Positions 1,066 to 53,679 of a stretch of 64,000 bases of DNA are shown here, one piece after another. The stretch lies in NCBI GenBank assembly GCA_965113315.1, contig OZ220373.1; one strand, 5' to 3'. Each line of letters opens with the position of its first letter. Positions within the stretch are counted from its first letter, which is position 1. Source of the stretch: Podarcis vaucheri. Taxonomy: Eukaryota. Made by a program: the position numbers and the translations under genes. A model generated the notes under the pieces. That model was given only the letters and a program-made list of their open reading frames with translations. It was not told where the DNA came from and did no database searches.

Positions 1066-3910
1066 GTAAGTATTGTCTGCCTTTTAATATTTTAATGCTT
1101 TCTGCATGGCACTAGCTTTTGTGCGAGCTGTAGTTATTTAACATGCGTTTGTGCTGACAGGCTCAGAGCACTGCAGCTTTAGGTCGCAGGAACATTTTCA
1201 GAATGCATTTCAGTTGCTGTTCGCAAATGTGTGAGCCTAAAGCAAGGATATTGCAGTATATTTCAGATTAAAATATACTGCATATTTAAAATCACTGAAT
1301 GCATGAATGTGAGCATCCTAAAAGCATACTGTGAAATAATGCTTTGGTAGGCCACGGTGTTCGTTTCTCTCTCACACCCTTTCTGTTTCTGTTTGTTTAT
1401 CCCAGTGCTGCCTTTTTGAAAGGCCTCTTTCTCTGCTGAATAATAGAGAGCTCTGCAAGAGATTAGGGCATAAGAGGAATGCTATTTGTGAAAATTCATT
1501 GCGTATGATCCATGTTTTACTGTGTAGAGTACTGGTGAACTGTATTGCATTCTGACATTTCTGCTTGGTATTCTAGTCTTTGCATTAAATGTGCTTGTGT
1601 GGGTAAGGCTTTGTTTACTTAGTGATGTTTTAGGACTGATGGACTCATTTGAATGATTCCAGTTTGCATTTAGAAAACAGCTGCATAAAAACATACGTAT
1701 TTGATTTACAGTGAACATGTTGACCATAATGTCTGATTTTTAAAGTGCCAGTCCATTGATTCTGAATAAATCAGCCAGTGCAAAATGTGTTTATTTTTGT
1801 GTCCCACCACAATTTGCTGCATAGATATAGATGTGTATCAGCACACACACACACATGCAGTATTCTCTCAAGATGTTATTTTTGTAGGTATTGAATAGAT
1901 TTAATGTGCCAGTTGTTCTGCTTTCCTAAAGAGAATAGGTCATCTGTAAGGTCAGGTTACTTAGCTGTGAACCATTTTACCCATCTACAAAATAGATATG
2001 TTATTTGATATACGTTTGCATTTATGCATGTAGTGCCACTTCTAGTGAGTTGTAACTGATACAAAATATTAATTCTGTTAGTAAAAATGGCATTCTGGTA
2101 TCTTTGACCACCTTTGATAACTAGATTACAGAAACACTGACATTAATAAAGGTAGTAGTTTCTGTGTTTCATTTATTGTATGTGATGTGTAGATAGTACC
2201 CTGAAAGAATTACCTAAATTCACTGATAATGGTTTGCTTATTGTTTATTTTATTTGAGCATACCTTCCTTTAAAAAGATGGAGTCCAGTGTTTATACTTG
2301 GAGTTTTGCTTGATTGTAACTTAACCATATATAAAAGTAATAAATAATAGTAAAAAATTCTTGATTTTGTAAAGTATTGGGATGTGATTGTTTTTAGTCT
2401 CAACATTTTATTATTTTCTGTTATATAGCTTTTATGTCTGACTTAATGTTTGACATATTTAATTTACAAAGTTTCTAAGGTAAAAATGATCCATTACGTT
2501 GCATTGGCAACTTGATAAAATTCTAACTCTTAACTATTATTTTGGTCAATTTTAGACACAATGACAGCTGGCAAACTTTGTATTTTTTGTTACTAATTTG
2601 AAAAAATTATAGCTTTAACTCCATTTTGCAAACATTTTATTAATAATCAAAATAACAGTATTCCTGAAGGGAGCCATGGACTCCAGTAGGCATAGTTATA
2701 TCTTCTGTTTCCATACTGTCTCTGGCCTGTGTACCTCAGTTCTGCCCAGTTAACTATGATATTTGCCATTGTTCAGAATAATTTGGATGACATGGAGTTT
2801 TAATATTGGTAGTTGGCCTGTTGCCATTATTGTTGGTGTTATGACTGGTGGAGTTATATTAGTAGTATTTTAAGAAAATTCTCACTACAAACAATTTGTG
2901 CCAAGTTTACTAACACAAATAAACATAGGCTGGAATTAGGCACTATAATACAGATTTGATGTTTGCATTAGATTCAAGCACAGTGATGTTAAATTTTTAC
3001 AGATGTCTTTCTGGAACAAGTATTTAAGATATCAGGTATTCATAATTCAATGTTTAGACACTGCTGTTGTCAGTGACTGTACCATATTTTCACAAATGGC
3101 ATTCTCAAAACTAAAAATGAATAGTAATATTTTCATTATTATTTATTTTACTTGTATTTTCCTTTAGGCCTGTTGCATTTTTTATTTTGTAATTTTTCTT
3201 ATGTGTATGTGTTAGTGTCGCATTTAAAGTACTGAAATAAGTTTTCAATACTTCTTTCAGCCAATTTTCATTCAGCGTTTGCACAGTGCAATATTGTAGC
3301 CAATGAGGTTCATCTGAGGCATGATCATTGTTAATTGATTCCCCCCGCCCCACTGCATGGCAATTCAGAATTGAGGGCAATCAGTTCTCCTGAAAGTTAG
3401 CAGAATCTTTCTTTTGTGCATCAATTTGTGTACTCAAATTTGTGCTAATTTCATTTTTACAAGCAATTTTTATAACAAGATTTGTTTTTTTTTAAAAAAA
3501 TGCTCCGTGTGTTTGAACACTTTCTTATAATGAAAACATTTGCATGGTTAATCCCACCCCCCATTTAATTAGGAAGATACAGAAAAAATAGGGGTCTTTC
3601 AACATGATTTTTTTTTGTTTGGCTTTCCTCAATGTAGAGAAAATCAGTTTCCTGTCTACTGATTGTGCTTGAGGCCATACTCCCTTAATTCAGTCATACT
3701 ATAGGATTTTTACTCAACTTCTGTTTACTAGAGATGACATTATTTTAACTTTCAGTCTCACCCCAAGAAGCCTGAGCCCAACCCCAACAAGCCCTTGCAG
3801 TCCATGCAGTCCTCTGTACGCTTTTCATTTTTGGAGGTAAGCAACTAAACTTCCATTGTTGCAGTTCTCTGCCTTCCACATTGAAGAGGGGGAGTAGATA
3901 ATTGAAGCCT

Positions 3911-15786: not shown

Positions 15787-15878
15787 ATGGATATGTCTGA
15801 TCCACATTTTTGGACTGTGTTCTCAAGTTTTACAATGCCTCATTTGAGAAGTGGAAACAGACTCCGCCGAACACAAAG
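15787..15878 (+). CDS. MAST4: MAST4 alternative first coding exon B (MDMSDPHFWTVFSSFTMPHLRSGNRLRRTQ-S)
   Basis: ATG GAT ATG TCT GAT CCA CAT TTT TGG ... CGC CGA ACA CAA AG|GTAAAA. 30 codons + 2 nt, phase 2, joins exon 38502 (AG|T = Ser). Resembles the recalled MAST4 isoform start MDMSDPNFWTVLSNFTLPHLRSGNRLRRTQS and the MAST1 N-terminus MSDSLWTALSNFSMP...FRRTKS. Confidence 0.9.
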
Positions 15879-41520: not shown

Positions 41521-42956
41521 ATTGGTTAATGGAGGCCGGAACACCTCTGAGAGTTGCTTTGATGACCAAAATTAATCTTGAGGAATGACTATAATAGAAT
41601 AATTATACAGTAGTTGAATAATTAACATTTTCTAGTAGAACTCTAGTGTTTATTATGACCACTGGTTAATTACTGTTTAAGCATCTGCAGTGCATTACTC
41701 TTTAGTACACACACTGGATAATTATTTGCTACCTTTAAAACTAAATAATGTTGTCAAATAGAAAAAGACGAACCTTGCGTGCAATAACTCAACTTTATTC
41801 CCTTGAACAGTGTAATCTTGTTTCTATATATTGGACTGTGTGCTTATCAAAAACTTAGTGGGTTGTGTGTTTCTCTAGAAAGATGATTATGTATTTCTTG
41901 ACAGACACCACTGCTCATAAAAAGAACATTCTTACTTGTGTCGCCTTTACGTTTCCCCTGTAGACAGACCACATGCTCTAATTATGCATGCTGAGAGGCA
42001 GGCTGGTATAGTGGCGAACTTTCCCTCAACAGCTGCCTGCCAAGCTTTCTCAGTGTTCAGCAGCAGGTTGAGTGGTCTAATGTGAGAAAGTAACAAGGCC
42101 CCAAAGGAAATGTTCTCTTCACAATGAGCAGTCACATCTTCATATCATTTAAGATCACCTCCCCATGCCTTGTTCTTGCCAGTCCTGGGAATAACTTTCT
42201 ATCTAATTTTCATGGTTTGCTTGTTGCCATATAGAATGGTTTTTAAAAGGGGGGGGGGGGCGGCAAGAAAAATGTTGAGAAATAACATTTTTAAACTGTG
42301 GATATCAGTGTTTATTGCAAACGTCCTTAAATGCTGATATATTGAGAACAGATATATACATATTTTATGTACTTTTTTAAAAAAAGCAGAGTTTCAGTCT
42401 TAATATTCCGCCCCCCCCAAAACAGAAATATTTCTGTAGCTGTGGTGAACTACTTTTTGGTTGAGATGATGTAATAATTGTTTTTGTTTTTTTGTTATGT
42501 CTTTTGTGTTCTCGTTTTGTATTTTTATGTTATATATTACATTTTTATGTTATATTTAAATATTTAGATGAAGGGTGGTATACAAATTCAATGAATAAAA
42601 TAATAAACACATAAAAATATATTGAGAGAACCAGAGATGGAAAGCAGGATGGAAGTTAAGAGTCTAGCTTCCATTTTATTTACATTTTAGATAATTATAT
42701 TTTATTTATTTACTTTATATGCCACTCCATAACAAAAGCAGTCAGGGCAGCACAAGGTGAGTCAATGTATATGGATGGAATAGAACTTGAAGGTTACACT
42801 ATTTGACCAACTTTGTCATTAAGCACGATACACATTGCGTGCTATACAAACAAATGATAATCAGAGCAAAATAGGTTTCTGAGGATTTTCACTGAGTCTA
42901 ACTATGATTGTATGACACTTTACATAATTTTCTTACTTTCTTCTGTTTCTCACCAG

Positions 42957-43026
42957 GGAGCAGTCCTCAAGATAGCCCTAGAAATTTTTCTCCTAGTGCC
43001 TCAGCCCACTTTTCTTTTGCACGAAG
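42957..43026 (+). CDS. MAST4: MAST4 exon (GSSPQDSPRNFSPSASAHFSFAR-R)
   Basis: TTTCTCACCAG acceptor, AG|GTAGGA donor, 70 nt, phase 1 to 2. Matches MAST4 SPQDSPRNFSPSASAHFSFARR. Confidence 0.96.
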
Positions 43027-43379
43027 GTAGGATGGGTTTGTGTGTATTTGATGTGTCATAATTCATAGTTGGGAATCATGCTTCACTTTGCATTTATGCA
43101 TCTATAATATGCTGGTGGAGGTAAGAAACACCAATATATGTTGCCTTAAAATGCAATTCAATTTATAATAGTCTTCGCAACTTGCTTCTTGATACTGCTA
43201 ATTTCTTGCAATATCTAAAGTTCATTTATATAAGAACCAGGATTATCACCTCTTTCCCTTCCTTCGTAGTAATTTAATTTAACTTAATTTAATTAATTTT
43301 AAAAAGACTAGAAAATACGTATAGAATTTACAACGGCCTGTAATCCAGCCCTTGCAAAACTGTATTAGTGAATTATAGA

Positions 43380-43520
43380 AACCCAGAATTGTAGAGTTGG
43401 AAAGGACCTTGAGGGTCATCTAGTTCAACCTTCTGCAAGGCAGGAATCTCACCTCGATCAGATGGCCATACAACCTCTGCTTAAAAACCTCCAAGGAAGG
43501 AGTGCCCATCACTTCTCATG
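43380..43520 (-). mobile_element. CR1 LINE extreme 3' end
   Basis: AGAATTGTAGAGTTGGAAAGGACCTTGAGGGTCATCTAGTTCAACC...CAACCTCTGCTTAAAAACCTCCAAGGAAGGAG, an antisense CR1 terminus. Confidence 0.7.
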
Positions 43521-46460
43521 ATAGGTATCAGTACATTCTAAAACCTTCCACTCATAAATTGGTATGTGCTATTTAATGCGGCATCTTGAGAGAGAGTCCT
43601 TTGACTTCAAACTAGCTCTTCCACAACTGTAATGATACGTGTGTTGTTATGGGAAATACTGAATGAGTTTATCTACCCCAGTGATTTCCAAAACCAGTTT
43701 CCTACTACACTGAAAGGAGCCAACTGGGGTGGAGTACAGTATGGGAATCTGTCAAAAGAGATTGTCACTACATTGTCATTCTGCAGAACTATTAATTAAG
43801 CCACAATGCTGTGTAGTGAGTCACCCAGAGAAGAGCTGCCATTGTTGATTAGGGTGACTCTACTGATGAAGATGCCCCTAGCAGAACAAAATCCAGAAAA
43901 TAAGACAGAGTGAAAGTTGTGTTAGAAAAAGAGTGGATCCTGCCTCATCTGGCATAGTACCTCAGAGATTAGAATGTAAAAGAACCAATGACTACCCTGA
44001 AGAGAGTGCTAGGTTTTGTCTACCCAGGAACACCTTTGTGAGGATTAATTTTTGTATAGTTCTTGGAAGATGCATTTGTGATTGTATAGTACTATTGCAT
44101 CAGTATAAGTGATCTGTTGGTCACCTGAAGTATTTGACTAATCCGAAGCATAGGATTACATTTACTTGTGAATACATTGCGGGTTGGTTAATGGGTACTC
44201 AGCTGTATCAGAAAATGAACCCATTCTATATAAAGGAAACCAGTGTTTTCTAAAAAAATGTTATCTGAAGCATGCACAGATAACCAGTGTAGCTGATACG
44301 TAGCATGAAGTTCAAATGCTACACCTTCCTCCCCACCTGTCTCGGCAACCATAAATAGATGTGAAAATAACATTAAAACTGGAATGTTTGAACATGATAA
44401 TTGTCAAATGCTGGACAATGACCCCAATTTCTCTAGTGGATTCAGTACCCTGGGTAAGAAATACCTCTTCTCCAAATAACTGCAGTCTCCTGCAGTTTTT
44501 GCCTGTGATCCTTTCTCTTTTTCGGTGATTGGAGTGAGAAGAAAGCCACAAACCTGAATACACTTCCATTTGTCATGGCCTTATAGAAATCATATAAGTA
44601 TTAACGTTGGGAGGGACAGATGCATAAAATGTTACATCTTGATTATATACAGATTTATTTGAAAATTCTGATTGATTTATCTTGCAGTTTCTATTCTTTC
44701 AACATTTTCTTTAAGGATATACTATTCCTTCCCAATTTATTTCCCATCTTCTTTTCATATTTGCTCAGAAACATAAACCACTACTATGTATTTCAGAATA
44801 GCCGATTGAAAACTAATTTACATTGTGTGCCAGTTTTATACACCAGAGGAAATACCAATAGGAAAAAATAGAACTGTAGCATAATAAATTGCATTGATTC
44901 TCTGAGTTGTAACTATTACCATGAACAAAATTCAAAGCCAGGAATGCAGGAGTTACCCCTTCTTCTATTTGTATATAGTAATTTCCCATTGTAAAGACTA
45001 AGTTTTGCCTTGCTCATAGAATAAAACAGAGGATCTTATGCACATGTGTTTTATTGAAAGCCCAGCCTAAGAGTTTTGGGAATGGAAAGTAATTGGTTCA
45101 TCCTAACTTTGCTCATTTAAAAGAACTGTACATCTCAAAAATCTGAAAAAAGTCTACCTAACTACTGTCATTACGTGTTTAGGATATGTGTTTTAAATAT
45201 TTAACATTATATATTTGTGCTCATTGAAATGTTTCTCTCTGAATTACTACTTTCGGCAACAATCTATTTTTCAGTGAGGAAATAATTTGTTCTTTAGAAA
45301 GAGGTTCTCGTTCCCCCGCCTTCTAGATTAGAGCAAGTCTTACACAATGCATTTTCTTCATTGCTTTGTTTTCATAGCTTAATGAGCATGCTAGAAGTGG
45401 CAAAGTGCCATTATACCAGCACTCCCTTCTATTTACCCCTCTGCAATATGAGTAAAATTGTCATCACTCTAGCTGACTGCTGTGCATATAGTAAGGATCC
45501 TGAAATACATGTGAGGATACATCACAATATGAGACTTAGTTCTCATACCATGCAAGTGAGAAAGTTGGCAGAGCAAAAAACATAGTATGGTAACATGAAA
45601 GGGGTGACTGTCTAGTCCACAAGACCATCAGTTGTCCATTAATTTCATTTAGATGGTCTTTGGCATGCTTGTAAAAATACAATTAAAAACATTACAACAT
45701 CTAGCACAGCACGTTACAATTGCTCCAACAACTAGAAAAATAATTAAGTGGTCCACCAAGACAACCAAGTGGTCCACAGGGGGGGAAATTGGGAACTACT
45801 GATCTATTCAGCACAGCAGTTTTCTTTAAAACACAACAAATTTCTAATAAGCAAAAGTTCATACATCCTATTACTGAATGGATGCCACTGGTTGCTCTTC
45901 TGGCCTTCTCTGGAAACGTAGCACGACTGGCATCTCCCTATTTCTTCATGGGAAATAGGACTTCATGGGACTTCCACTTTAGAGGTCGCCTTGGTCTGAC
46001 ATCACATTGTTGTAGCATTATGAAAAAAAATCATCAACAGGGTGTTTGTGTAAATAGAAGCAGATCATTGCACTGACCAAAGTTGAGTAAAAGATAGAGA
46101 ACGGGCCTTGAATAAACAACGAAGTTGCATCATTCAGTTATGTCAGGGATGGGGAACCCGAGACCCTCCTTATGTTGGACTCCCAACTCCCTTCAGCCCC
46201 AGCTGCCATAATTATTGATCAGGGGTTATGTGAGTTGTAACCTGACAAAATCTGGAGTACCACAGATCCCCCACCCCAGAGTTGTGGTTTTTTTTTACAT
46301 CTGTTGTAAAATTGGAAGATCTTTTGCAAAATGCCATGCAGGGTACGTCCCCATATATTTTGAAGCTGTCTATGCTGATTGTCATGCTCTTATATTTAGA
46401 AAGTTGTTGTTCTACTTCTTCATTTGTTTTTTAAATATACTTTGCACAATTATAATGCAG

Positions 46461-46481
46461 TCATGGGCATCGAAACGAGAG
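46461..46481 (+). CDS. MAST4: MAST4 21-nt alternative microexon (S-HGHRNE-R)
   Basis: T-rich tract ...TTTGCACAATTATAATGCAG|TCATGGGCATCGAAACGAGAG|GTAACT. Phase 2/2 and frame-preserving. Gives FARSHGHRNERTDGRRW, paralleling MAST2 ARSHSHRADRTDGRRW. Confidence 0.8.
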
Positions 46482-47262
46482 GTAACTGTCACGAAAACTT
46501 ACTACTCTGTTTTTGTGGTTTGTTAATTTGATTGTAAATTTCTGACTAGGATTGCCAACTGCCTAGAAACAAACCAGCCATGCCAGGTTTTTCCTTTTTC
46601 TCAGAACAGTGTTGCTGAAGTGGGGTGGGGAAAGGGGATTAACTATTAGTTAAGCAGCGCTGTGTAACCTTGTTGCATATACGGGTCACATGGGTCACAA
46701 AAATGTAAAAGGCCACTGGAGCCCAGGAAGATAGCATTGAAGGAGCTCTCTTCACCATTGTGCTGGCAAGCTTATCTGCTCTCTCTCCCCCCCCCCCCCC
46801 GCACTGATTAGCAATCACAGAGCTATCAGTTGTGTTGGATGCAGACAGTGCATATCATGTGTATGTTATTTTCTACTTTTGTCTGTGAAACAGTTGTAGC
46901 CTCCTGTTAGACATGGATGGTAGTGCTGTAGCAGAGGAATTATAAACACAGGCACTAACTGCACATGTTACATCAGCAGAGTATTTAGGCTTCATCCAGC
47001 TGAAAATTTGAGTTGGCAGTCCTATGTCTGAATGTGGACTACATGTAGCAGAATTTGAAATTGTCCTACATGGTAAATGTTTTGTTCTACCAAAATTTAT
47101 AATTTTATGAAAATGTTTAGTTTTGCAAGTCACGTTGCTGTAATTCTTGGTTCATTTTATATACATTTCCATGTGCATTCAATTTTCTAGCCTATCATGG
47201 TTGTGCATCGGTCTCTCCTCCATCCTGTTCCTGTTTTGCATTGTCTCTAACCGATATCCTAA

Positions 47263-47547
<285 letters not shown>

Positions 47548-48489
47548 TAGATAGATAGGTAGATAGCTTCTGCTTGTAATATATTCTCAGATTCAGCCCT
47601 TGTAAGATTTCAAACAATAATGTAGATTTCTACTAGTATCTACAGTAGGGGTAGGGTTATAGGGAGATAGGGGGAGGCTCTATCCCAGCAATACCATCTA
47701 TTAACATTTTAAAGGATTTTGATTGGGTTGCCCACTATGCTTGTCAAAATATTTACTATTTTAACTTTTCCTGGCAATTAGTTCCCCCCTCCTTTCTCAT
47801 AATTCATACAATAGATGCTGTCTCACTGACATAATTGAGAACTTGCACTGATCCTCTGCCCAAAAATGCTATTCAAGTAGAGCTGTATTTCTAACGAATA
47901 CACTTTTTCTGTTATTGTCCCTCTTTCAACAGACACACTGTGTGTTATAACCACTGTTGATTTCCCTTCCTTCATATAATATACAGTACAACATGATAGT
48001 ATATTTTATATATGCCAGAAGGTACTTTGTATCCTCCCATAACTCATTTTCACTTTGAAATTTTTATTTAGCAGGATTCCATGCATTGCTTAGCTATAAT
48101 ACAAATGTTATTTTTCCCGTTACACAGTTTGGGGCCCATTTTCCTTGTAGTAAATCCATGTTCTATTGAAGCCTATCATTTTCACTGCAAGATAGGTTTG
48201 GGTGCCTGAATAATTACATATTCATATCTTGATAGGTACAACCTGGCTCTTCATACTAGTTTTTAAGATTAGGTGATGTTTAGATAACTATAAGAAAATA
48301 CGAACCACAGTTAATCTACTGGTAGGTTGTTAAGAGATCACAGCATAAATTGTCATATTCTGTTATTGCTTTAAACCTTCTGGAAAATAGTTTCATGTAA
48401 ACTGTTATGTTGAGAAAATTAAGAAAAAGCCTTTGAACTATCTGTCATTGGGAAGATGGCTCTGAATAATAAACATAGATAAAATAAAA

Positions 48490-50230
48490 ACTGACAAATT
48501 GCCAACTGGGTCCAGATGGCATTCGCCAGAGAGTTCTCAAAGAACTCAAATGTGAAATGGCTGATCTTCCAACAGAAATATGTAACTTGTCACTCAGATT
48601 AGCCTTCATACCAGAGGACTGGAAAGCAGCCAATATAACACCAATTTTGAAAAAGGTATCCAGGGAGATCCTGGAAATTACAGGCCAATTTGCTTAATGT
48701 CTGGCCTGGGAAAACCAGCAGAAAGTATTTTTAAAGATAAGCTAACCAAGCATATAGAAGAACAAGCCTTGCTGAAGCAGAGCTGGCATGGCCTCTGCAA
48801 GGGCAAGACCAGTTTCATGAGCCTATTAGAGTTCTTTGAGATTATGAACAAGCTCACAGGGGTGATCCAGTTGGCATAGCATACTTGGGCTTTCAAAAAG
48901 CTTTCAATTAGGTCCCTCACCAAAGTCTCCCGAGTAAGCTTAGCAGTCATTGACTAAGAGGAGAGGTCATCTTGTGGGTAATTAACAGAAAACAGAGAGT
49001 AGGAATAAATGCGCAGTTCTCTGAATGGAGAAAGGGGAGTCCCCCAAGGATTGGTATTGGAACTGGTGCATTTTAACTTGTTTATAAATGAATTGAAGTT
49101 AGGGGTGAGCAGTGAGGTAGCCAAGCATGCTGATCTGATGATATTGTTCGGGTTTGTTAAAGCAAAAAAGATATTGTGAAATGCTCCAACAGAAATGAAT
49201 GGACAGTAAAACGGCAAATGCAGTTCAGTGCAAACAAGTGTAAAGTGATGCAAAACATTCTAATTTCACACAAACATATATATGCTCATGTAGTCTGAAC
49301 TTGTAGTGACTGACCATGAATGAGACCTTGAGGTTGTAGTGGACAGCTCAATAAAGATGTAGTTCCAGAGTGTGGCAGCTGTGAAAAAGCATTATGACAA
49401 TCTCATAATGCTGTTATACAAATCTGTAGTGTGACCACAACTGAAATACTTTATACAGTTCTGGTCTCTAAACCTCAAGAAGAATATTATAGAGTGGGAA
49501 AAGATTCAGAAAAGGGCATCCAAAGTGATTGAAGAGATGGAGCAATTCTCCTGTGAGGAAAGGTTGAAGCATTTGGAACTTTTTAGTTTAGAGAAAATGC
49601 AAATAGGAGGTGACATGAGAAAAGCTTATCAGATTATGTATAACATGGAGGAAATAGGTAGAGAAAAACGTTTCTGCCTCCTTCTTATTAAACCAGAACT
49701 CATGAACATCTAGTGAAGCTGAATATTGGGAGATTCAGGACAGATAAAGGAAAGTGTTTATTCACACAGTGCACATTTAAACTGTGGATCTATGAGCACC
49801 AACTTAGATGGCTTTAAAAGAGGATTAGATAAATTCATGGAGGAGAAGGCTATCAGTGGCTATAAGTTGTGATGGTTATGATTTACCTCTTCTGTCAGAG
49901 GCAATATGCCTCTGAAAACCAGTTGCTGGCAATTGTAGGTGGGCAGAGTGCTGTTGCGCTCAGGTCCTCCTTGCAGGCTTTTCACAGGGAGTGGAGGACC
50001 TTGGGGTCTCAAATTTCAGCAGTGCCCTGTACAACTGCCAGAATTGGCGTTCCCCACCTCTCATATTCCATTCTAAATCATAGTTGTGGCATTCCCAAGG
50101 CTCCAGACCTAGTGTGACCAAACAGTCACACTCCCCTAAATCTGCCACAGCCTTGTGGTTGGCCACTACCTGAGCAGGATGCTGGACTATAAGGGCCAGT
50201 GACGTGATCCAGCATGACTCTTCTCACACT
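48490..50230 (+). mobile_element. CR1 LINE, degenerate RT + 3'UTR
   Basis: GPDGIRQRVLKELK, EDWKAANITPI.KK, GNYRP, HGLCKGKT..LLEFFE, GVPQG.VLELVHFNLFINEL, and a CR1 3' end (GGATGCTGGACTA...GATCCAGCA). Many stops and frameshifts. Confidence 0.9.
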
Positions 50231-50237
50231 TTTTAAC

Positions 50238-50373
50238 CAGGCATAGGCAAGCTTGGCCCTCCAGATATTTTGGGACTGCAATTCCCATCATCCCTGACCA
50301 CTGGTCCTGTTAGCTAGGGATGATGGGAATTGTAGTCCCAAAACATCTGGAGGGCTGAGTTTGCCTATGCCTG
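50238..50373. mobile_element. Hairpin hAT MITE
   Basis: Near-perfect ~57-bp inverted arms CAGGCATAGGCAA...CATCCCT / AGGGATG...TTGCCTATGCCTG. 8-bp TSD TTTTTAAC / TTCTTAAC. Confidence 0.88.
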
Positions 50374-50829
50374 TTCTTAACTGATCAGTCTGAAGCTGTC
50401 AGCACAAATCACTTAACTTAAGGATTGTATGTAAGCATAGGTAAGGTAAAATTAATAGAAAACTCCTTTGCTCATTGCTTTTTCATCCTAGGTTTTAAAC
50501 AAAGAGGATAGTATTTCAAAAGAAAATCTATTCATAGTAATATTCAAGCAAGCAACTATTTTGGTCTTCAAGATTTATACAGATGTTTGCTTTGTGAATC
50601 TGAATAATTGACTGAACACATGCTTGGAGACTGGATAGGAAATTTCAGTAAGGCATTTCTCCAGAAAGGTGAAGTGTTGCTGCCTCAGGATTTAGAAGCA
50701 GCAGCAACCTGTTAGAAGGAAACTAACTGTTGTTCCCCATCATGTGTTCCTTCTGCAAAGCAAATGTGCCTCTTTACTACACCAAAATAAATATCCATGT
50801 AGGACAGTGTATTAAGTGGAGTGATTCTG

Positions 50830-51020
50830 GAACATAGGAATATAGAAAGCTTCCTTATACCAAGCCAGTCCATCAAGCTCAGTAACGTTGACCCTCACTG
50901 ACAGCAGCATTTGGAGGTTTCCAGTAGGAGTTATTCCCAGCTCTACATGGGAAACACCAGGGGTTGAACCTGGGACTTTTCATATGCAAAGGAGGTGCTC
51001 TACCACTGTGCTATAAGCCT
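50830..51020 (-). mobile_element. tRNA-derived SINE with CR1-like tail (antisense)
   Basis: AACATAGGAA...AGCTTCCTTATACC tail, plus GGTTGAACCTGGGAC...GCTCTACCACTGTGCTAT as the antisense tRNA head. Confidence 0.7.
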
Positions 51021-51447
51021 TCCTCAAAATTGCTTCTGAAAATTGCTTCTGTAACTTTCCAACGCATCATCTTGATAAGTCACCTTCTGCACCAAATTAT
51101 CTTTAAAGTTGCATTACAGCACAGCAAATAAAAAAGGATAGCGGTAGTTAATGGATGATCATGTTATACTATTTTCATACATATGCTTAGCAGTTTTGTC
51201 TGTTTTAAATCCAAGGGCTGAGAGAATACACAGGAAGGGTCCTTGAAATTGCAAGGCTGTATCTGTACAGATGCATATAAAGTGTTTGCATGATGTTATT
51301 GCTTCTATAATCTATTAAGGTTGCATTTTTATTTTCTGTGTTCAGAAAGTTTAGGAATAAGGAAGTTATTCTGTGTACAATCCATACAAATGTTTAACAT
51401 GACTTTAGGGTTATGGTACGAATTTATCTTCCACACGTTTATTGCAG

Positions 51448-51605
51448 TCATCCTGTTCCTCCCAAGAGAAGTTGCACCAGTTACCATACCAACCAACTCC
51501 AGACGAACTACATTTTTTGTCTAAACATTTCTGTGCCACTGAAAGCATTGCCAGTGATAATAGATGTAGGACCACTCAAATGCGGCCGCGATCCAGAAGC
51601 CTGAG
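51448..51605 (+). CDS. MAST4: MAST4 exon ([53 protein letters not shown])
   Basis: TTGCAG acceptor, AG|GTGGGT donor, 158 nt. The LSKHFC.TESIA..NRCR segment is MAST4-specific. Confidence 0.97.
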
Positions 51606-53679
51606 GTGGGTTGACCTGCCAGGAAATTGAAATGATACCTTCATGTGGAAACTCATGAGAAACTATACTTTTTATGCACGTTACTATAACATTGTTTTAT
51701 ATTTTGTTACCTTGTTTAAAAGCATTTCTAAATCTCTTAATGTAAAACATGAAAAACAGTAAGGCAATACAATAAATACAGAGATTCAAAATATACAACA
51801 GGGTCCAAAATTGTGTGTCAGGGAAAGTCTGGATAAAATGGTAAATTTTTTGTGTGTGTGCTTGTACTAATGTTTGAATTGTAGTAAAATATAGAGCTAA
51901 TTGTGTCTTATGCTTTTTTAAAAAATGCACATTAGTTTTCAAATGGTCTTCCACTAGCCTTGCCCTTAGAAATGTGAAATCATGACCTTCACAATTAAGT
52001 TTATAATTTTCATTTCAGTTGCTTCCTAGCTTAATAATCTTCAAAATGTTCTCAGTATATCTATTGAAATGATTGAAAATGTGCTGCGTGGCAACATAAA
52101 TTATTCAGAATTCCTACCATCACAAAAAGTATTTAGTTTAAATTTCTTCCTCTCCCAAAGTTCTGAGTACATTATGGTGATTAATAAAAAAGCTACATTC
52201 ACAATCTGTAGAGAATTAGACTACTTGTTGAGAAACCAAATTATAGGGTGATAGGTTTGCTCTTTTCAAGAGTTTGAAGTTCTCTTGTTCTCAGTAGAGG
52301 TGAAGCTTGTCAACAAAGAGAAAGAAATATAGGTGATCTTTTCATTTGTTCAGAACTAAATCAAAATATTTAAGGTATTAGTTTAATATAAAACTAGTGT
52401 CTCCAGAAACTACAACTTGCAGACATTTCCTGCCTTAGCTCCATAGATTGAAATGTTACATTCTTCTGATTCCCAGTTATCTGAGAAGGATAAATTTTAT
52501 TCTGAACTGTGTTGCATGTATCCTGGAGGCTGTGGTCACTCTCTAGATTTAATGAAACAGCATCTCCATATGCAAAAACAGTGAGTTGTAGTGTTAGTGT
52601 CAGCGTAAACAAGTCAGTCTAATGTACATATGCACTTGGCTCCTCTTGTACCACCCCCCACTCCTTAATTTCCCTTAGCCATGTAGAGGCTTGAGAGGGG
52701 ACAAAATGCAATAAGCAAATAGATTCTGGATGAAGTAGGAGGAGGACAGTAGCTGGTAGAACCTGTCTAGAGTGACATAGCTGGTGTGCAAGAGTCACAA
52801 CTGGGTCCTGTTATTCAGAGGTCAGTAGGCTCTGTTGCATAAAATGGAACTCCAATAGTCAACATATATACTTATCCTGAAATTCAGTGTCTTTTGCACA
52901 GCCCCCCAATGAAAATACAGTGCAACTACATTACATTATATTTCATTATATTACATTACATCTTACAGAATTTGGCCGTAGGCCTAACAAAACAGAGCAG
53001 AGATTCTACTTTAAAGATAGTTGATGAGGATTTAGTGATATGTGTGTACTAGAACCTGTTTTCCCAGGTCATGTAAACCTGCTTTATAAAGTTTCAGAAC
53101 CCACATAAATTATTTTGATATCAGGTGCCTAGCCTTAGGAAATACATACTCGCTCGTTCCCCTTTTCTTATAAAGTGGGAAAGGTGGAAGCAGCCTTTTG
53201 CATCTGCAGTATTTAGGACTGAGCTCAAAAATATTGTGCCCCTCAGACTAGCAAATTAGTCTTAAGTTAGTCTTAAAATGTCACAAGACACTGTTGATTT
53301 TGCTGCAGCAAACTAACATGCCTACACCTCTGGAAACTGGGAGTGGACTGACTCCCAGCTCTTGAAAACATTGTTTTTATCAGTTTACAAAAAAGCATGT
53401 TCAGAGGTCAAGCTGGCTGACATGGCAAGGTACAGGGGACAGGACAGAAAACCAGGTTGGAGGGTTGACTAGAATGGAGTATTGCAGAGGAAGGCATGGC
53501 AGACAGACTACAACAGTGACTAAGACCTCTTCACTCTGCCACATTTTGTTGCAGCCCCCTTTGTCATGTAGTAATAATAATACTGACTGCCTACAGAAGA
53601 GAGTACATAAATTATAGACCTCATTTTCAGTTCATTCAGTACAAGATCCAAGGGATGATTGGCTTTGCTTTACTTGCAG

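Follow-up and report, generated by a model that had tools for sequence, protein, structure and literature searches.

Introduction

MAST1–4 are ohnologs linked to the vertebrate genome duplications. MAST genes are implicated in neurodevelopmental disease, and how the kinases are activated is described as unexplained in the discussion of PMC13598245. According to the same source, S90 of MAST1, located within a 10-residue motif, is a substrate of PAK4 and docks a 14-3-3 dimer together with S161; S77 is also phosphorylated by PAK4 in vitro, and the MAST N terminus is described as disordered. The phosphorylated N-terminal DUF1908 region has been presented as a possible regulatory hub, and the available part of that report does not mention the microexon treated here (PMC12732324). 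The present analysis concerns a 21-nt cassette microexon of MAST4, located in the intron that precedes the exon that carries the S90-type motif, in a 64,000-nt stretch of DNA from the lizard Podarcis vaucheri (assembly GCA_965113315.1, contig OZ220373.1), hereafter the window. Collectively, the evidence makes it reasonably likely that this microexon, conserved across jawed vertebrates, is spliced in mainly in neurons with the aid of SRRM3/4 and would tune the flank of the adjoining, likely phospho-site.

The architecture of eMIC-controlled microexons has been defined, with UGC as a typical but dispensable element, and no MAST gene is named in the available parts of the sources (PMC12871342, bioRxiv 2024.09.17.613571). 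UGC occurs in 74-79% of SRRM3/4 targets, being neither necessary nor sufficient (bioRxiv 2024.09.17.613571). Table S2 of PMC8797185 distinguishes two classes of Srrm3/4 response: the 9-nt exon of mouse Mast4 (MmuEX0028014) belongs to the milder one, termed eMIC-sensitive, and the 21-nt exon of mouse Mast2 (MmuEX0028003) is eMIC-dependent. The percent spliced in (PSI) of the 21-nt exon HsaEX0037980 of human MAST2 rises from 23.6 to 81.6 (+58) upon SRRM4 overexpression (PMC7935315), and Mast2 has been used as an Srrm4-dependent microexon (PMC11283458). For the 21-nt exon of zebrafish mast3b, the PSI difference (dPSI) is +91.8 in neural tissue and -24.8 in the eMIC mutant (PMC12626424).

The lizard exon itself is already contained in public gene models, and splicing catalogues list its relatives from mouse, human and fish. 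The joined picture was not found in the literature searched (supplements and most subscription journals lay outside the search), namely one exon in four MAST ohnolog lineages, cut from 21 to 9 nt in placental MAST4, lost from the sampled bony-vertebrate MAST1, regulated in a manner specific to paralog and species and located beside a PAK4/14-3-3 site. The fresh points are limited to the evolutionary series and the position beside the newly characterised regulatory site.

Results and Discussion

Gene Identity and Exon Structure

The assignment of the locus to MAST4, already proposed in the initial annotation, is borne out by tblastn, in which the RefSeq protein XP_028605058.2 (P0161) of Podarcis muralis aligns to eight segments of the window at 89-100% identity. 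Orthology is further indicated by a tree clade shared with chicken and monkey MAST4 (100/100; 15 hand-chosen rows, midpoint root) and by the DUF1908-kinase-PDZ architecture detected by Pfam on P0161. Since the same alignment places the P. muralis segment SHGHRNER exactly on 46459-46482, the reality of the microexon is decisively backed, and it can be regarded as almost certain. This segment corresponds to residues 302-309 of P0161 and thereby falls in the first part of the DUF1908 domain as matched by Pfam (282-562).

The microexon consists of TCATGGGCATCGAAACGAGAG and is separated from its neighbours by introns of 3434 nt (upstream) and 972 nt (downstream); the 3' end of the upstream exon reads ...GCACGAAG, followed by GTAGGA. 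Inclusion turns FARRTDG into FARSHGHRNERTDG, with 12 residues across the junction upon skipping and 19 upon inclusion. As in other vertebrate coding microexons, 3-27 nt are enclosed between AG and GT, the frame is kept and no stop is introduced. On re-reading, the coordinates, the 55-nt AG-free tract, the TGC at -18, the GTAACT donor and the 2/2 phase first reported were all correct, and the description of a real, frame-preserving microexon is upheld by these splice signals and by the presence of SHGHRNER in the gene models of relatives. The accompanying remark that the exon is easily missed by annotation largely failed to hold: it is contained in public models of eight squamate genera, although it is missing from the listed Zootoca and P. 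lilfordi isoforms.

The acceptor is unusual within the window. Only 67 of 2244 YAG sites on its + strand are preceded by an AG-free zone of at least 50 nt, and the microexon acceptor belongs to this top 3%. When such a zone is combined with an in-frame exon of 3-27 nt and a good donor (at least 7/9 consensus positions, a crude score of our own and not MaxEnt), two sites remain in the window, one of them being the microexon, which also ranks first among the 40 stop-free in-frame AG..GT candidates of its intron. Pyrimidines amount to 72% at -45..-20 versus 53% at -20..-3, so that the tract is set back from the AG. Together with the long AG-exclusion zone, this corresponds to an SRRM3/4-type architecture. 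The TGC at -18 would be the UGC expected between branch point and AG; a second TGC, at 46456 (-5), is part of the acceptor TGCAG itself. AGGTAA does not occur (0) in the 300 nt 3' of the microexon.

Table 1. Coordinates of the MAST4 microexon, its flanking exons and signals, and of the corresponding exons at paralogous loci
Feature	Position	Strand or junction	Details
Upstream MAST4 coding exon, GSSPQDSPRNFSPSASAHFSFAR	42957..43026	+	70 nt, phase 2 end; 100% identical to P0161 residues 279-301
Extended acceptor region, AG-free, T-rich	46404..46458	+	55 nt, 54% T; previous AG 46402-46403
TGC at -18, candidate SRRM3/4 enhancer motif	46443..46445	+	same motif at 30% of YAG sites
Acceptor AG (CAG)	46459..46460	+	read from sequence
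Cassette microexon, 21 nt, phase 2/2, R -> SHGHRNER	46461..46481	+	sequence, paralogs, relatives' models, tblastn
Donor GAG/GTAACT	46482..46487	+	read from sequence
Downstream MAST4 coding exon, 26 residues	47454..47532	+	79 nt; S90-type motif named in PMC13598245
MAST2-like 21-nt AG..GT exon, SHGHRADR	G000:C25:54455327-54455347	same junction	MAST2-like by flanking sequence
MAST3-like 21-nt AG..GT exon, SHAPRTDR	G000:C40:12634567-12634587	same junction	peptide identical to swift MAST3 XP_051495352.1

Conservation of the Insert in MAST4

The counts given here derive from computed gene models rather than reads, and conservation was read at the protein level, with paralog DNA in addition. A search with the plain window exon returned the 7-residue insert in 6 of 120 listed proteins (four sharks and rays, two teleosts). 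In a second search, aimed at the insert with a shark query and hence not a source of frequency estimates, the motif is present in 118 of 120 listed proteins, with an insert at the junction in 118/118. SHGHRNER is found in eight of these 120, all squamate MAST4, from eight genera (Sceloporus, Crotalus, Hemicordylus, Paroedura, Liasis, Heteronotia, Anolis and Podarcis), and SHGHRNDR in 27 (24 birds, two turtles and the marsupial Dromiciops). The remaining insert-bearing proteins are variants in teleosts and cartilaginous fishes, others being MAST2 and shark MAST1-like. The pattern S-H-x-x-R-x-[DE]-R is retained from sharks to lizards. In the conservation check proposed for the 21-mer, homologous inserts occur at the protein level in sauropsids, a marsupial, teleosts and sharks, and, judged from these predicted proteins, the 21-nt MAST4 microexon is conserved across jawed vertebrates.

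Forms with and without the insert coexist among the models. The insert is present in five and absent from one of the six listed chicken (Gallus) MAST4 proteins, and the listed Dromiciops proteins divide into two with and three without. Among the 15 listed members of the lacertid cluster, seven carry it (all P. muralis or P. raffonei), seven do not and one lacks the motif; the models without insert are those of Zootoca and Podarcis lilfordi (7/7 listed isoforms). A single added serine at this position (RSRTDG) was also observed, in 8 of 13 sloth members of the P0352 cluster, in pig P0321, in bird P0197 and in teleosts P0045 and P0101; this form likely arises from tandem acceptors 3 nt apart at the start of the downstream exon.

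A Shorter Insert in Placental MAST4

Among 120 mostly mammalian matches, a 3-residue insert is present in 17 (15 NDR, one NER, one IDR), carried by primates, rodents, bats, one carnivoran and one ruminant. The 7-residue form occurs in three (Dromiciops and two turtles), 97 have no insert, two show one extra serine and one is aberrant. In eight placental clusters with 118 listed members, NDR is found 18 times and the 7-residue form not once (motif missing in seven), and two marsupial clusters with 30 listed members contain the 7-residue form once and NDR never. No placental MAST4 appears in the insert-aimed list of 120 proteins, where it would be expected to score like Dromiciops, and no 7- or 3-residue insert from an afrotherian or sloth was seen among the clusters examined. 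An NDR insert had been put forward for a human MAST4 isoform; it is present in 'isoform 5' of chimpanzee and orangutan and in other primates, rodents and bats, and absent from the one human MAST4 protein examined. In the cluster of P0300, four erbin proteins are grouped with primate MAST4 and were counted as 'no motif'; they probably come from a fused gene model.

Since NDR corresponds to the last three residues of SHGHRNDR, the placental exon would most simply be the last 9 nt of the older 21-nt exon. The bases preceding these 9 nt are CAG in the lizard MAST2-like exon and TCG in lizard MAST4. An acceptor AG inside the exon, at the place of this MAST2-like CAG, is therefore a likely route by which boreoeutherian MAST4 would have been trimmed.

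Paralogs and Origin

The downstream exon, used as query, identified four loci in the lizard genome, and the matching introns were scanned for microexons. Counterparts of 21 nt were found in the MAST2-like and MAST3-like genes (Table 1). As blind queries both matched best at 46459 in the MAST4 intron, and the three lizard exons have 12-14 of 21 nt in common; the AG-free zones measure 53 nt (MAST2-like) and 101 nt (MAST3-like). No such candidate exists in the 6.3-kb intron of the MAST1-like locus (G000:C39). A degenerate copy in that intron was considered and rejected, the best ungapped match being 14-17/25 with no proper AG/GT. Likewise, all 10 motif-bearing MAST1 proteins of catfish (13 listed) are devoid of the insert. 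Shark MAST1-like proteins do carry it, and in the 15-row tree they group with catfish MAST1 at 100/99.

These paralog exons at the same junction, together with the shark MAST1-like insert, agree with the initial view of an ancestral MAST-family exon, and the MAST2 insert SHSHRADR named there is indeed encoded by human MAST2 exon 13, as translated by eye from Fig S12 of PMC7049692. Because all four ohnolog lineages hold the exon somewhere, its origin likely predates the duplications that gave MAST1-4, and the exon would have been lost from MAST1 of the lizard and of the sampled catfish. In invertebrate MAST representatives, in which the motif is present in 43/150, no homologous insert was seen, isoform sampling being thin and no lamprey, hagfish or amphioxus sequence having been identified; it is missing in scallop (5/5) and tick (1/1). 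The history of the exon may thus be read as a length series of 21 -> 9 -> 0 nt.

Possible Effect on the Phospho-Site

The 10-residue S90 motif is identical in the exon that follows the microexon, with the Ser codon at 47473-47475 as the equivalent of MAST1 S90; the claim that the microexon adjoins a phospho-motif therefore stands, the motif being that named in PMC13598245. The insert ends eight residues N-terminal of this serine, leaving P-7 to P+5 intact and altering P-8 and beyond. The serine of an upstream F-S-F sequence is located at P-11 upon skipping, at P-14 with NDR and at P-18 with the 7-residue insert. In lizard and catfish MAST1 it lies at P-13, and by this spacing it would be the equivalent of S77. 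The idea that the insert alters how far apart the two 14-3-3 sites lie was considered and rejected, as the distance between the S90-equivalent and the RSRSLS serine is 70 residues in every MAST4 form. A Protein Data Bank sequence search with the downstream exon gave 0 matches; the segment belongs to the stretch described as disordered, and binding there depends on phosphorylation. By way of the distal flank, the insert would most likely have a modest influence on phosphorylation or on the loading of 14-3-3. The core motif is left unchanged, which weighs against an effect on the protein, and a measurable effect of the insert on the phospho-site appears doubtful.

Splicing Regulation and Alternative Explanations

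RNA data from a related organism, 4 of 24 listed runs (two of raw reads, two of contigs), were mapped to 42700-52000. Bins over the flanking exons have a mean depth of 0.1-2, and the tables consist mostly of repeats. One RNA contig spans the microexon unspliced (46427-46685), which is uninformative on splicing. Short interspersed repeats at about 43380-43515, 49700-49900 and 50250-50380, which have no relation to the exon, collect thousands of partial RNA reads. Because the lizard exon shows the full architecture and has an SRRM3/4-sensitive counterpart in mouse, neural-enriched inclusion helped by SRRM3/4 is considered probable in lizard MAST4, by analogy with its relatives. The neural SRRM3/4 signature first proposed is supported indirectly, by mouse, human and zebrafish relatives; the TGC is weak evidence, and mouse Mast4 is in the milder, 'eMIC-sensitive' class. 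SRRM3/4 control would be a family trait whose gain or loss varies among paralogs and species. MAST rows are absent from the 12 of 18 supplement files of PMC9303857 that were searched and from file 6 of PMC7935315.

Several observations weigh against neural control in the lizard, and some of them would suit a real microexon whose inclusion is broad or controlled outside neurons (in the ZRANB2/SYF2 manner, or in several tissues), SRRM3/4 being minor in lizards. In breast cancer lines, ZRANB2 and SYF2 govern the inclusion of human MAST2 exon 13, which its printed sequence places at the same junction (PMC7049692); its PSI is already about 24 in control cells (PMC7935315), and no TGC is found by eye in the 36 nt preceding it. 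The mouse Mast3 exon MmuEX0028009 (21 nt) is an ordinary alternative exon (PMC8797185 table S2), its human MAST3 counterpart, with a dPSI of -2.1, is non-neural, and the zebrafish neural-exon table holds no short mast4 exon, only one of 81 nt (PMC12626424); mouse and human MAST3 are thus neither neural nor eMIC-regulated in the available data. No MAST4 row exists in the human SRRM4-target sheet of PMC7935315. Among lizard models, the exon is present in all seven listed for P. muralis and P. raffonei, compatible with broad inclusion, and the MAST2-like and MAST3-like exons of this genome have no TGC within -30 to -6. TGC at -25 to -6 is common, occurring at 664 of 2244 YAG sites (30%), and was therefore rejected as stand-alone proof of regulation. 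Broad control is nevertheless judged unlikely: the mouse Mast4 9-nt exon is eMIC-sensitive, responses to SRRM3/4 are documented for the exons of MAST2 and zebrafish mast3b, and the lizard exon combines a long AG-free zone and a TGC with no AGGTAA beyond its own donor region. The same RNA data bear on a further reading, that of a chance AG...GT pair never spliced: no exon-exon joint at the microexon or flanking exons is among the joint rows listed, at low depth, which also weighs against the preferred explanation, and the intron offers 40 in-frame AG..GT candidates. Its probability is nonetheless negligible, since the identical peptide in eight squamate genera, the shark homologues and the paralog exons at the same junction refute it in substance.

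A different question is what the seven residues do once spliced in. They could act otherwise than on the phospho-site, as a short linear motif for another partner or as a near-neutral linker, and this prospect is only slightly short of even. The unaltered P-7..P+5 segment and spacing to the second 14-3-3 site speak for it, as do conservation of sequence and not just length across four paralogs, loss of SHGH in placental MAST4 and of the exon in lizard MAST1 at no evident cost, and the weak phenotypes of most single microexon deletions in zebrafish (PMC12626424). It is opposed by the position of the insert, directly between the putative S77-equivalent and the S90-equivalent, both PAK4 sites in vitro.

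According to the preferred explanation, a 21-bp cassette older than the MAST duplications and common to MAST2 and MAST3 would have been trimmed to 9 nt in boreoeutherian MAST4. Its inclusion would be neuron-preferential with SRRM3/4 help, by analogy with mouse Mast4, mouse and human MAST2 and zebrafish mast3b, and the insertion may make fine adjustments to the flank of what is likely a PAK4/14-3-3 site without altering the kinase fold. A bolder version is improbable and offered as speculation: a length-tunable dial on the PAK4/14-3-3 site (7/3/0 residues in most vertebrates, placental MAST4 and amniote MAST1, respectively), by which SRRM3/4 would directly set neuronal MAST2/3/4 regulation, placentals having re-cut the exon via the internal acceptor with sensitivity kept. 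With the two natural isoforms, a possible influence of splicing on an S90-type site can be tested at low cost, and the MAST4 exon offers a clean case of microexon length evolution and a handle on MAST regulation.

Other MAST4 Features of the Window

At 3756-3836 (+), the window contains an 81-nt AG..GT MAST4 cassette exon, LTPRSLSPTPTSPCSPCSPLYAFHFW, which adds several S/T-P sites. It is present in three and absent in three of the lacertid models sharing its upstream exon, and, judged by its length, it likely corresponds to the neural 81-nt exon catalogued in mouse (MmuEX6060041) and zebrafish (DreEX0045172). At about 15787-15878 (+), an alternative first coding exon of MAST4 (MDMSDPHFW...) matches P. 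muralis isoform X13.

Comparison with Known Systems

The squamate RefSeq MAST4 proteins (XP_028605058.2; Anolis, Sceloporus, Crotalus and others) are close counterparts, with an identical SHGHRNER at an identical junction and no difference at the protein level, all being computed models. Mouse Mast4 MmuEX0028014 belongs to the same gene and has a similar layout, with introns of about 4.3 and 1.4 kb versus 3.4 and 1.0 kb in the lizard. In contrast to the 21-nt lizard exon, it measures 9 nt and lacks SHGH, and it is eMIC-sensitive (PMC8797185). By length and layout it would be the NDR exon, rodent MAST4 proteins having NDR at this junction.

Human MAST2 exon 13 is presumably HsaEX0037980, a match assumed from length and a genome-build offset. 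The MAST2 microexon resembles the lizard MAST4 exon in junction, length (21 nt), phase and peptide (SHSHRADR), and it is SRRM4-responsive. Unlike lizard MAST4, it has no TGC near the acceptor, contains a CAG just ahead of its last 9 nt, and shows substantial non-neural inclusion as well as control by ZRANB2/SYF2 (PMC7049692).

The MAST3 microexon (DreEX0045163, MmuEX0028009, HsaEX0037994) also has 21 nt, and swift and Salminus MAST3 carry a homologous insert at the junction; from gene and length, these VastDB events would represent the exon at the MAST4-equivalent junction. It is reported as neural and eMIC-regulated in zebrafish, but not in mouse or human. For MAST1, the lizard MAST1-like gene is devoid of the exon, and the available text of PMC13598245 does not treat it ('splic', 0 matches). 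The 10-residue motif around S90, demonstrated in that work for mouse MAST1 only, is identical in lizard MAST4.

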